From: Euprymna scolopes
Taxonomy: Eukaryota
NCBI GenBank assembly: GCA_053919585.1
Contig: CM132797.1
Reading direction: 5' to 3' (one strand)
Length of the DNA: 64,000 nucleotides
The notes below the pieces were generated by a model that saw only the letters and a list, made by a program, of their open reading frames with translations, searched no databases and was not told where the DNA came from. Each line of letters opens with the position of its first letter. The first letter of the stretch is position 1. Position numbers and translations under genes: made by a program. This document shows, piece by piece, positions 23,628 to 28,984 of the stretch.

Positions 23628-24977
23628 AATGTATCCCACTCTTAATACAGATGTTTATATTAATACCATTATGATAACTTTTAGAATACCACACAAGAGA
23701 TCTACTCGTACTACGGGATTGATATAGTAAGGGGAGTTATATCTGCAACATAACACAAAAAACAGTCGAAATCTTATTCCAAAATAAAAATTCAAATAAT
23801 ACATTTATTCAAATTTTGTAACGTTGGCATAAATTTATAGGTGAGAGCATTATTTTAGTGGATAATATATTTGTGTGTTTCTGAGTTTTTTTTTTAGACA
23901 AAACATTGAAAAACATTTAAAATATAGGAAAAATGCTTTGAAAACCTTGTAAATTATACGGTTATTTCAATGATTGGTGACCAACTGGGCTCCAACTCTT
24001 GTTTTATTATATGGTCCGTTTCCTATCTAATAAATACCCACCTGTTTATTAGAATGATGTATTGCTTATTTCTTGTTATCTACAACAGAGTTGTCTTACG
24101 TAGAATGTTTTATTCTTATTGTATCCTTTAGATATTATAACGTATTTCAAATTTGAACGAACATATTTTATTCTCACCGGGTATTCATGACCTTGATATG
24201 AACAGCGCTGTGCCCTTTTTCGTTAAGTAAACATCAAGTTCTTATAAGATGTGATTAATTGTGATGAGAAATTGGTTTGGGAATAATTTAAAGAAATAAA
24301 CAAAAATGATCTTTATCTAAACATTATGTTAAGTTTTTCCAATTTAAACACAGACAGCTTTTAATTAATCACAGCTTGATTAATCTAATTGGAATGATGC
24401 GTTATTTGAAAGTTGAAATATATAAACATTGAATTCGACTAAGAGAAAATTTTATTATAATTTATTTAAAACGAATATTATCAACTTCTACTGAGCACGA
24501 TATGAAGTAGAAAATACCCATGCCAATAATTTATCTGATGAACTAAAAGAATAATACAGGTTCTGTAATAGAGTACAAATGTGTAGGACTGGTTACTATT
24601 ATCATATCTTCATATGCCTCTAAGAATGAGAAAAATGCTAAGATGAATATTAACTGGTATGAAATGTAAAAAAAATCCCTCGACCAACATTGTATAAAAG
24701 TTAAATATGAAGAAGTCTGTGTATGAGCTGAGGGAAAACAAGGAAGTCTTGTCGGTTGAAAAATCGCCGCGGATTTAACATTCTTCCTCTAGCGGTAAGC
24801 ATATGTCAGACTATCTGCAGTAATTTGCATTTGTCCATGAAACGGCTAATTGCTATAAAGGTCGCTCCTTGCACTAAATTAGGCCTTGCTAAACAGAGAG
24901 ATGCAACAACAAAAAAATTGGCTGGCATGAGCATAGGCATCTTATCCATGTTTCCTGAAAACTTACAGCATAAAAAT
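23628..24977 (+). pseudogene. Decayed coding sequence, copy 1; candidate endogenous bunyavirus-like L polymerase fragment
   Basis: Homologous to 25118-25250 plus 26765-27745 with many synonymous third-position differences; YLNIMLSFSNL, FCNRVQMCRTGYYY, FNILPLAVSICQTICSNL, LAGMSIGILSMFPENLQH. Confidence 0.5.
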
Positions 24978-25675
24978 GGGAGTGCTTCTCATTGGACTCA
25001 ACTCAAGAAACACACACCGAGCTATTGTTCTTTTAATACACAGAAACAAATTGATCTGATCAACCAGAAGAAGGTTCAAGATAAATTCACAACAAAATAA
25101 AAGAAACCAATAAATAAATGTATCCCACTCCTAATGCAACTATTAATGATTATAAAATTCTGATATATTTTAGAATACAACAGTAGAGATCAACTCGTAG
25201 TACGCTATTAGAATATTAGACAAATGATGTTCACAACATAACCCAAATATACGANNNNNNNNNNNNNNNNNNNNNNNNNNNNNNNNNNNNNNNNNNNNNN
25301 NNNNNNNNNNNNNNNNNNNNNNNNNNNNNNNNNNNNNNNNNNNNNNNNNNNNNNNNNNNNNNNNNNNNNNNNNNNNNNNNNNNNNNNNNNNNNNNNNNNN
25401 NNNNNNNNNNNNNNNNNNNNNNNNNNNNNNNTAACTTTGGAAGGATGAGATGCAGGTAAAATATTTTCCCATGTTTTTCCGCATTAGGAAAATGGACTCC
25501 ATTCCGTTCATTGTAAAAGTGTTTTCTTACGAAAGGCTGTCCTTGTGCAAATTTTCAAAAGACATAATATTAAATGCATCCAGTTATTCTTGAAACAATT
25601 GTAACTAACGATGAAATGCAATATTTGTTGCTATCAAGCTATTGATGTTGTTAAAACAATATATATATATATATA

Positions 25676-25722
<47 letters not shown>

Positions 25723-25726
<4 letters not shown>

Positions 25727-26160
25727 TGTTGGGACGATCAATCGGAATCGAAATCGTGAATCGGAAATATCGGAAGATTTGGGGGTATCGGAATCGGTAT
25801 CAGAATCATACAAATTATAGTATATTTTCCGATGCCAACACGATTCTTTTTATTCTCTTTTTTATTTACTTTTTTTAAAGTAAAATATATTATTACTAGT
25901 AATACTGATAAAATATTAAATATTTATTGATTTTAAAATACCAGTAAAGCTAAAATCGAAAAATCACCCTCCACAATTATATTGTGACGTTTAGGAAAAT
26001 ATCTGCATTTTTAACATGTTTTTACAAAAATCGGGGAAAATAACAATGTTATAGATAACTAATTAGACATTTATACAGAATCGGAATTGGTAATTGTATA
26101 ATAATCTGGAATTTAGAACGGAATTCGTAATTGTATCGGAATCGGGAAAAATAGATGAAT
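25723..26160. mobile_element. Non-autonomous DNA transposon (MITE-like) with subterminal ATCGG/GAATCG repeats; right end lost in the gap
   Basis: Starts TAGTGTTGGGACGAT right after (TA)n; clusters of atcggaatcg at 25740-25810 and 26078-26146. Confidence 0.55.
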
Positions 26161-26338
26161 NNNNNNNNNNNNNNNNNNNNNNNNNNNNNNNNNNNNNNNN
26201 NNNNNNNNNNNNNNNNNNNNNNNNNNNNNNNNNNNNNNNNNNNNNNNNNNNNNNNNNNNNNNNNNNNNNNNNNNNNNNNNNNNNNNNNNNNNNNNNNNNN
26301 NNNNNNNNNNNNNNNNNNNNNNNNNNNNNNNNNNNNNN

Positions 26339-26420
26339 ACAAAATATTCCGCATTTCATCCGCCTGAGGAACCCTATCGCGGATGAACCGCGAAATAATC
26401 TGTGTAGCTTAATCCTATCG

Positions 26421-26496
<76 letters not shown>

Positions 26497-26665
26497 TATC
26501 AACTAAGGTACACAGATTATTTCGCGGTTCATCCGCGATAGGATTCCTCAGGCGGATGAAATGCGGAATATTTTGTGTAGCTTAATTTCCATGATTTATT
26601 TATTTTTACTTACCACTTAGTTCTCCTTATGTATTGAGCACAGTTTAATTAAATATTTAAAGTTG
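26339..26665. mobile_element. Penelope-type pseudo-LTR fragments forming a 74-bp inverted repeat with hammerhead cores around (TA)n
   Basis: 26339-26412 is the near-perfect reverse complement of 26503-26576; CTGAGGA-A(T/C)CC-TATCGC-GGAT-GAA-C cores; tail gtattgagcac...ttaaagtt (26631-26664) matches the minus strand of 20102-20135. Confidence 0.8.
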
Positions 26666-28984
26666 ATATATAAAATTATTCGTTCGTCGATTACTTTATG
26701 TGCTTTAATGAATGTTGAACTGAGCTACAGTGTTCGTTTCATTACATAGTAAAATTCTTATCTATTAAATACCTACAGGTTGAACAGACTGCATCGTAGT
26801 TCATTCCCAGTTATCTTCAATTTAGTTCTTTCAGTAGAATGTTTTATTCTTATTGTGATCTTTCCAAATTATAAATTATTTCAAATTTGAACAAACATCT
26901 TTTATTCTCAACGGAGTATCAGGTCATTGATCTGACTAAGCCATTACCGTTTTATCTTTAAGTAATCATCATATATTTACAAGGTGCGTCTACCTAGTAT
27001 GAGCCATTAGTTTTGGAATCGTTTCAAGAAAGACAACGAACAATATTGCATTATGTTAACATTATGTTTAGCTTTACGAATTTGAACCCAGAAACAATTG
27101 ATACGATTGGCAATGAACTATTCAATTAATTACATCCTTATAATTCTTATTGGAATCATGAGTTATTAAAAAGTCGAATTATACAAACATTAGATTCATC
27201 TAAGAGAAAGTTTATGTAATATTTATTCAAAACAAAAATAATCAACTTCAGCTTAGCGAAATATAAAGTAGAAAATACACATGACAATAATTTAAAATGG
27301 GAAACTAAGGAATAATAGAGATTCTGTAGTAGAGAAGAGATGTGTAAGACAGGTTACTATTATCGTATTTTAGAATAAAGATGCTAAGATAAATCTTAAC
27401 TGGTATAAAATGTAAAAACAAATCATCCTTCGACAAACATTATAGCCGTAGCGAATTGTTAAATAATTGCAAATTACGTAGTATATGTGTAGACAGCGAG
27501 AGACAGGGGAACTCTTGTCAGGTAAAACAATAGTTTGGAATCAAGCATTCTTCATCCATCAGTAAGCATATTTTCGGCTATGCGGATGAATTTGCCTTTG
27601 TTCCATAAAACAGGTGATGACTTGAATGGTTGCTTTTTGCATCAAATAACAATCTTGTCAGGCGGCAAGATACTACAACAGAAAATTGGCTGGCATAAAC
27701 ATAAGAATTCTAACTAAGTTTCCTGAAAACTTGCAACATAATAATTACAGTGAACGTTATTACGACTACTGGTGTATTTGTCTTGGACTTGACTCAAGTA
27801 ACTTACAACATGCTATTGTCCTTCTAGGTGGGCCTTCCAGCAAGTACATCTATTTGGTTCCAAGAGAAAATCGATTAAAGCATTCGGAGAACATGCCAAA
27901 AATAAGATTTGCTTGGCCAACAATGAAAGTGTTTCTTATATTTTCTAGCCGAACACCAACAACAAAGTATTTTCGGTGTCCGTAAGGAGAACCAAAAAAC
28001 TGCACATGGTGAGTAGACACATGAAACTAAATTAAAATTTTGTGTAGTAATGTACTTACTTTAATATATAAGCAAACGAATAACGACATATTAATAGAAT
28101 TGTGAGTCTACTTAACGTCTGTATAAACGTACTTTCGCATTATCTTTGCTAATTTCACATTGGATAATCATTAAATTAATTTGTTATTAAAACCATAGTC
28201 ATTAAAATAAAAATTTTAATATAAAAAAACAATGCGTAATTCTTTAAAAAATCATTTAATAGATAATTCAAATCCCAAAATTTATACAGAGATATAAAAG
28301 TAAAATTGACCAATATTATTCGAGCAATTTCATTAAATTCAAACTTTTTTTATGATACAAACCTGTTATAGGCAAATTTAAATTTACAAATTATATGTTA
28401 ATTTTCTAAAAAAAACATATTCTTAAAGATGTTATTTAAAAAACGACATTTTAAAGACCCATTCTCGAACTAGTTTCCATTGAGATGTGTATAATTTGTA
28501 CATATTTCCAACAGAGTTGAATCAATGCAAACATTACAGAAGGAGATTTAATATATGAAATAATAAAGGTCTGGAAAAGCTTATGATATTTTACCGGTAC
28601 GATGGATCTTTGATTTAATATATTTTTTCGTTTTCTGTTCCCCGCTTTCTACCCCAAACTCGTTTACTCTTACTNNNNNNNNNNNNNNNNNNNNNNNNNN
28701 NNNNNNNNNNNNNNNNNNNNNNNNNNNNNNNNNNNNNNNNNNNNNNNNNNNNNNNNNNNNNNNNNNNNNNNNNNNNNNNNNNNNNNNNNNNNNNNNNNNN
28801 NNNNNNNNNNNNNNNNNNNNNNNNNNNNNGACTAATTCGATTACTAGACGAAGTAAACTTATCGGTATAATAAGTTCGAATTGCTTTCTTTCCAATGAAT
28901 CCTACTTGACCTTGTGTATAACCGTTTTAAAGAGAGGTAAATATTTAATACATGAATATGTATATATTTATATCTATGTGTTTC

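Follow-up and report, generated by a model that had tools for sequence, protein, structure and literature searches.

A dead, tandemly duplicated locus in the Euprymna scolopes genome with suggestive similarity to the L segment of Elliovirales-like viruses

Bunyavirus-like NIRVS have been described from arthropods, among them endogenous viral elements (EVEs) of crustaceans (PMC4573495) and elements of Ixodes and mosquitoes (PMC6580184). In the sections of these two reports on which we draw, segmented negative-strand EVEs are common in arthropods and include heavily degraded elements that were duplicated after insertion. A screen of vertebrates reportedly detected no such EVEs (PMC11089739). Bunya-like viruses of bivalves and snails, hanta-like as well as unclassified, share 21-28% identity with known viruses in the excerpted account (bioRxiv 10.1101/2021.04.21.440720). 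We found no literature report of a bunyavirus-like EVE in the present host group.

The locus described here lies in a 64,000-nt stretch of the Euprymna scolopes genome (contig CM132797.1), hereafter the window, and consists of a ~1.49-kb unit (23619-25107) that is present twice, head to tail, with 71-75% identity between the copies. Its features, in window positions, are as follows.

23619-25107, plus strand: first copy of the ~1.49-kb tandem unit, delimited by self-alignment; stops in all frames, read depth 14-18
24888-25097, plus strand: stop-free stretch of 70 codons in copy 1 that is the best, weak match of a peribunyavirus L profile there
25108-25254, plus strand: 5' part of copy 2, directly adjoining copy 1 and 75% identical to 23619-23759
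25432-26700, no strand assigned: high-copy repeat insertions that split copy 2, recognized by read depth; edges approximate, N stretches inside
26704-27826, plus strand: bulk of copy 2; its homologous counterpart in copy 1 is 23965-25035
27827-28238, plus strand: 3' continuation of copy 2, outside the duplication, single copy
27951-28076, plus strand: block of 42 codons resembling premotif A (motif F) and the helix after it, all in a single frame that contains stops

The tandem duplication is real. The copies align at 71% identity over 1083 columns between 23965-24977 and 26704-27745 (E 7e-129) and at 75% identity between 23628-23759 and 25117-25247 (E 2e-13), with an inter-copy alignment score of 910 against a maximum of 131 among 50 shuffles. 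Homology can be traced from 23619/25108 as far as 25035/27826; the copies differ by 27% and have diverged by 0.33 substitutions per site. Copy 2 is interrupted by high-copy repeats and extends to ~28100; the repeat interval includes (AT)n tracts and a palindromic MITE-like element (26339-26576), whose 73-nt arms are 97% complementary. These alignments, together with 25-41 stops in each of the three plus frames of both copies, confirm the two homologous, stop-riddled plus-strand blocks described in a first-pass annotation of this DNA, and the peptides quoted there were found again in place, spread over different frames. A separate two-copy element begins at 28239, just past the continuation of copy 2. 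The genome is 5.9 Gb in size and AT- and microsatellite-rich, and the surrounding window is full of TE relics.

The viral identity of the duplicated sequence is suggestive. With roughly even confidence, we interpret the locus as a defunct piece of the L segment of an Elliovirales-like virus that belongs to none of the families sampled. The main alternative, whose probability we place a little short of even, is that either the relic of an old transposon or single-copy non-coding DNA underwent tandem duplication, the L-like words being chance in AT-rich sequence. Abundant TE relics in the window are in keeping with such an origin, but a match to a TE or host family is likewise absent. Neither a parent gene nor a TE family was found in the own genome, a copy-2 ORF had no relatives at other loci, and an Rfam search of 18000-34000 gave no match. 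Own-genome searches, which give lower bounds, recovered no third copy of the tandem unit, and no further copy was found in 60 kb of flanks. That no host gene or TE matches the locus better than a virus, as is expected of an EVE, is based on negatives of limited sensitivity.

All standard searches were negative, which favors a non-viral origin. None of 12 whole frames had a Pfam match and none of 26 tiles matched a viral family, with Bunya_RdRp (PF04196) unmatched in both sets; three weak membrane-protein-type Pfam matches in the tiles (E 0.008-0.13) were rejected. The best tblastn match of 153 L proteins inside the copies had E 0.76, compared with the E <= 1e-3 usual for EVEs in the cited section of PMC6580184, and hmmsearch on six frames only gave iE values of 0.03 and 0.097. 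PDB sequences yielded no L protein for four window queries. A 246-codon frame had no genuine phmmer match among 1.84 billion proteins, the sole match, a 988-aa tandem-repeat protein, being spurious (out-of-frame stretch, sum of 12 weak hits). Probabilities in hhalign were 0.1-1%, and between 9 and 77 of 100 shuffles did equally well. Word-index protein searches with window queries gave no match among proteins of <= 2000 aa, the limit of that search, and full-length L therefore fell outside it; the same type of search with the mixed alignment returned two hantavirus fragments only. A metagenome motif scan gave nine loci, two of them long L ORFs with motif context and length like those of existing references and the rest short chance frames. 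The stop-free copy-1 ORF had no usable match in the ESM Atlas, and neither PF04196 (strict prefilter) nor one orthobunya-type L core matched the own genome, both searches being run without a positive control.

Pfam Bunya_RdRp, a profile comparison proposed earlier, gave no match. A peribunyavirus L profile gives two weak colinear blocks. Its best match in copy 1 is 24888-25097 (22-25 bits, model 389-458), which corresponds to about La Crosse L 858-927 (numbering reference PDB 5amq). This block surfaced from the profile search, not from a motif picked in the first-pass annotation. The best match in copy 2, 27951-28076 (model 469-510, about La Crosse L 938-979), scores 20-26 bits with decay-aware scoring and 14 bits plain, and carries a motif word of K.Q[KR]T type that is common to Elliovirales-type references. 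When scans were restricted to the blocks, 717,800 bases of background held 0 places that matched the copy-1 block (2 settings) and 0-1 that matched the premotif-A block (6 settings). With the comparison confined to a 25-codon band about the diagonal that the first-pass motif defines, the score of the copy-1 block is 22.2 bits, a value that none of 177 tiles and none of 60 shuffles reached. Searched with a mixed Elliovirales-type profile, both strands of 124 kb have the premotif-A region as their first-ranking match (26.1 vs 22.5 bits), and this region is the best match for four of six profiles; three of four profiles place some other match above the motif in the 124 kb.

The best copy-1 match covers model 390-457 and the best copy-2 match 467-512, neighbouring parts of L, and the two blocks lie 32 nt off one diagonal after the copies are mapped onto each other. 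Such a joint signal arose 43 times in 28,900 pairs of shuffles and 117 times in 37,636 pairs of genomic tiles, i.e., at a joint p of about 0.002-0.003, which is optimistic as the profiles, blocks and scoring schemes were chosen post hoc and the motif was picked by eye. Two blocks on one diagonal that beat 718 kb of background argue against chance words in non-viral DNA. In favor of chance, background tiles reach 22.2-22.6 bits vs 24.7 for the locus, and the copy-1 block does not recur in copy 2 (46 paired codons, +14.2 bits in copy 1 vs -7.6 bits in copy 2). The hhalign probability is 0.3% for 24888-25097 and 1% for the premotif-A block (E 0.053, equalled by 9 of 100 shuffles). The premotif A/motif F assignment of the first-pass annotation rises above background when tests are limited to the block; standard searches do not set it apart.

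Matches to L that had been named upstream of this motif score no better than chance. With a band of 10-45 codons allowed about the proposed register, copy 2 upstream of the motif reached 9.1-10.5 bits, as did 162-167 of 177 genomic tiles, and a resemblance of these upstream blocks to L beyond chance is not confirmed. The duplicated middle, which would span a well-conserved part of L, gave no signal with both copies scored together; the duplicated part stayed at <= 16 bits, again as chance would have it. For a source as close as Peribunyaviridae, 67-196 bits would be expected after 15-20% decay (power estimate with the two closest out-group references), and the source is therefore not within Peribunyaviridae, membership of which was excluded; a between-family distance would give 9-43 bits only. 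The chain test was not significant in 12 of 12 cases, in just one case among 56 model blocks did the top match in the window fall inside the copies, and neither the Forward score nor 5' and 3' extension lent support. In single-sequence frameshift alignments with 38 references, only one (22.0 bits, copy 1) was clearly above its six shuffles. The bunyavirus-like L origin proposed earlier has borderline support from two colinear blocks, against non-significant standard searches and a silent duplicated middle. A colinear profile match is neither clearly present nor clearly absent, and the searches turned up nothing in host proteins or TEs that fits better.

Comparison of both copies indicates that no open frame existed at the time of duplication, in line with a non-viral source, and stops in the best plus frames are then not rarer than chance (P 0.32). 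The single-copy stop-path test, however, leans toward plus-strand coding (z -3.1 and -1.8). Mismatches between the copies show no clear third-position excess, which fits neutral decay after duplication. Two independent insertions of different strains were set aside, given the head-to-tail junction and this lack of a clear third-position bias. The tandem unit is most likely functionless at present, and the locus is without coding function.

We consider it improbable that the locus is a viral fossil of another segmented negative-strand group (Hareavirales or unclassified Bunyaviricetes) absent from our references. The latter comprised orthobunya/herbe-, hanta-, tospo- and fimo-type L, a few unplaced L and phenui-type L only. 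The K.Q[KR]T-type word shared with Elliovirales-type references speaks against such a source, as does the phenuivirus-type control profile (56 sequences), whose best scores of 15.9 and 17.9 bits were within shuffles. Phenuiviridae-type L was rejected on these scores, there being no in-register match.

The earlier claim of endogenous origin is supported; the locus is host chromosomal, single and dead, with stops and single-copy depth. It is placed inside a 132-Mb contig with host flanks, and read depth in one DNA run is 14-18 on both copies vs 5,000-290,000 on the repeats in 25432-26700. One of the four sequencing runs, guessed to be RNA, has a depth pattern like that of the DNA runs. An assembly artefact or contaminating viral sequence is very improbable: no single contig from the examined runs covers the whole stretch of the locus, but the copies differ by more than a quarter of positions, DNA-run contigs bridge the copy 1/copy 2 junction (24792-25254) and the repeat/copy 2/3' flank (26563-28274), pieces were recovered in four of four runs from three studies, and the chromosomal placement argues likewise.

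If the locus is an L-segment fragment, it would stem from the central part of the L (polymerase) segment of an Elliovirales-type negative-strand RNA virus, whose RNA may have been reverse-transcribed by a host retroelement before germ-line insertion. The element appears to end before RdRp motifs A-E, for which signal was absent in 28060-28670 and 28830-30000. A fragment that stops just after premotif A, ahead of the catalytic motifs, would therefore never have been able to encode a working polymerase. It was probably already broken when unequal crossing-over or a similar event duplicated it, and both copies would have decayed neutrally thereafter. More tentatively, and with confidence well short of even, we propose that the fossil is ancient and stems from the L segment of an Elliovirales lineage of family rank that is still undescribed, and that it was fixed in the germ line of a non-arthropod invertebrate and dead before duplication. 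With no coding function, its interest is paleovirological. A viral origin would extend the fossil record of segmented negative-strand viruses, indicate an unsampled lineage and make a minimum age obtainable through orthologous loci; an ancient Elliovirales fossil would offer a deep-time calibration point for bunyavirus-like viruses. If not viral, the locus is an ordinary old tandem duplication.

Peribunyaviridae L (PF04196; La Crosse L) provides the two best colinear blocks, at about residues 858-927 and 938-979, but the conserved upstream part is undetected despite the 67-196 bits expected and the downstream catalytic motifs were not found. The bivalve and snail viruses, in the excerpted account, show that divergent Elliovirales-like L segments occur in non-arthropod invertebrates (bioRxiv 10.1101/2021.04.21.440720); unlike the locus, they are exogenous with open ORFs. 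Arthropod NIRVS, as presented in the sections cited, were detected by tblastn at E <= 1e-3 (PMC6580184) or share 24-73% identity with known proteins (PMC4573495), levels that the locus does not reach, and their copies are >95-98% identical, compared with ~71% here. In common with them, the locus is a partial candidate L fragment in host DNA, with stops and frameshifts, duplicated after insertion and situated among non-LTR retroelements.

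The duplicated stretch is resolved by the following features, listed in window coordinates.

23619-25107, copy 1 of the tandem unit
24888-25097 (+), stop-free block of 70 codons in copy 1, the best hit there of a peribunyavirus L profile
25108 to about 28238, copy 2
25432-26700, high-copy repeats splitting copy 2
26339-26576, palindromic MITE-like element of very high copy, with 73-nt arms 97% complementary and an (AT)n core between them
27951-28076 (+), premotif-A (motif F)-like block in copy 2
28239-28674 (L304:1-434), low-copy element whose sole other copy (97%, G000:C15:20241345, 1.8 Mb off) has unrelated flanks

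The tandem duplication is real and old. The two homologous blocks proposed by the first-pass annotation were borne out by self-comparison of the window, which matched 23965-24977 with 26704-27745 at 71% (E 7e-129) and 23628-23759 with 25117-25247 at 75% (E 2e-13), and by a copy-to-copy alignment score of 910 versus a maximum of 131 among 50 shuffles. Homology begins at 23619/25108, hence a head-to-tail unit of 1489 bp, and stops at 25035/27826. The copies diverge by 26.7% (Jukes-Cantor 0.33; 11 gap-free blocks, 951 columns), with 118 transitions, 146 transversions and no clear codon-position bias (25/18/16 in the largest block). High-copy DNA interrupts copy 2, and its partnerless 3' continuation reaches about 28238, where the low-copy element starts.

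The window (G000:C15:18414001-18478000, in a 5.9 Gb genome of 925 contigs) has ~30% GC and contains many microsatellites and TE relics as well as a 26-bp satellite; the genome may resemble that of a cephalopod. A LINE reverse-transcriptase ORF of 795 codons at 4423-6810 (-) (Pfam RVT_1, E 1.6e-35) lies between arrays of this satellite at 3975-4285 (12 copies) and 6809-14311 (~289 copies) and looks like an insertion into the array. At 20301-22451 (+), frames that are broken by frameshifts and resemble RT and endonuclease presumably represent a Penelope-type element; three ORFs of this relic had no Pfam match at 1e-3. Further relics of LINE endonuclease, Tc1-type transposase and LTR-type pol/integrase occupy 29381-30415, 31369-32179, 46917-50326 and 759-2416, the last being a putative assignment.

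Parts of the duplicated stretch are present in five sequencing runs, four of which, from three studies, were compared. Contigs of the DNA run X1, possibly the source sample of the assembly, cover 23704-24730 (22 differences in 1024), 24792-25254 across the copy junction (8 in 463) and 26563-28274 (15 in 1714), at a depth of 14-18 on the copies versus 5,000-290,000 on the insert. The differing sites, 2.1% in copy 1 (23704-24730) and 0.9% in copy 2 (26563-28274), may reflect haplotype variation. Runs X2-X4, including one from another organism, yielded short pieces of both copies, and no single contig in the four runs covers the whole stretch. DNA and translated-frame searches of the own genome, whose counts are lower bounds, found no further copy. 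The locus is single, was duplicated in tandem, later received repeat insertions and is without coding capacity.

A viral origin of the duplicated stretch has about an even chance. Natural L segments were collected by motif from a viral collection (66 + 14 orthobunya-type, with PF04196 confirmed for two; 49 tospo/fimo/herbe/unplaced types; 24 hanta-type; phenui-type, 56 used). The family labels are putative, read from motif and length; reference L059 matches La Crosse L (E 6e-69), and the hanta label agrees with a separate protein search. Frameshift-aware alignment placed profile A2 (model 309-378) on 24888-25097 at 24.7 bits, the top of 148 tiles (next 22.6 and 22.2) and above the maximum of 22.5 in 60 shuffles. 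The best two domains of the peribunya profile in six plus frames were 24891-25094 (model 390-457, iE 0.03) and 27942-28082 (467-512, iE 0.097), corresponding to roughly residues 858-927 and 938-979 of La Crosse L. When one copy is mapped onto the other, the two blocks lie 32 nt off a common diagonal; a 25-codon band gave 22.2 bits, reached by 0/177 tiles and 0/60 shuffles, and a 10-codon band fails to catch the copy-1 block. Under nucleotide-decay scoring (25 shuffles), the premotif-A region was the top match for four of six profiles (z 5.5, 3.0, 2.6, 2.0). Among all hits on the two strands of 124 kb it ranked first with the mixed profile (26.1 vs 22.5), and sixth, eighth and beyond the top eight with three others. 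By decay scoring each block alone is weak, with P 0.11-0.16 for one and 0.035-0.07 for the other; taken together and with the diagonal included, they were equalled by 43/28,900 and 117/37,636 null pairs, and a scan restricted to these model blocks found 0-1 places scoring as high in 717,800 background bases, for blocks picked post hoc from six profiles under several scoring schemes.

The stretch could instead be old non-viral DNA carrying chance L-like words, a reading to which we give a little less than an even chance. The upstream L-like motifs of the first-pass annotation score at chance level, block chains were not significant in 12/12 cases, and only 1/56 model blocks had its top window match inside the copies. 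Scored jointly, the duplicated part of both copies gave no L signal; in the 46 codons of the best block that pair between the copies, copy 1 scored +14.2 bits and copy 2 -7.6. Over 310 codons, the best plus frames have 5 stops in common and 13 present in one copy only (P 0.32 vs 2000 shuffles), and the unit was therefore not an open frame when duplicated, although a single-copy stop-path test leans toward coding (z -3.1, -1.8). No motif A-E signal follows the premotif-A block. Pfam gave no viral L match to the copies, PDB sequences no L match and word-index protein searches no match to window queries; tblastn with 153 L proteins reached only E 0.76 inside the copies, and hhalign gave probabilities of 1.0, 0.3 and 0.1%, with 9-77/100 shuffles equally good in six comparisons. 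A phmmer search of 1.84 billion representative proteins returned one match only, a repeat protein that was rejected as spurious.

On the peribunya profile, L proteins from other groups reach 42-270 bits when intact. Allowing for frameshifts and 15-20% decay, 67-196 bits would be expected analytically for the two closest references, L096 and L109, which excludes a peribunyavirus source. For the other nine references 9-43 bits are predicted. Noise extends up to about 20 bits; a source as remote as another family would often escape detection, the more so if decay preceded duplication. The copy-1 block falls where L is poorly conserved between families, the part that a distant source should match least, and so may be a chance match.

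The listed open-access titles and abstract openings mention no bunya-like endogenous viral element (EVE) in the genomes of cephalopods or other molluscs; further literature comprises PMC11089739, PMC4573495, 10.1101/2021.04.21.440720, PMC12548735 and PMC12451637. If viral, the stretch would be a bunya-like EVE of an unsampled lineage. It may, with chances evenly split, derive from cDNA of the middle part of L, from an Elliovirales-like virus, captured by the retroelement machinery of the host. The putative Penelope-like relic and LINE relics neighbour the duplicated locus, but are no evidence for this route because the whole window is TE-rich. Retroelement capture is the route proposed, in PMC6580184, for non-retroviral EVEs (NIRVS) of ticks near non-LTR elements.
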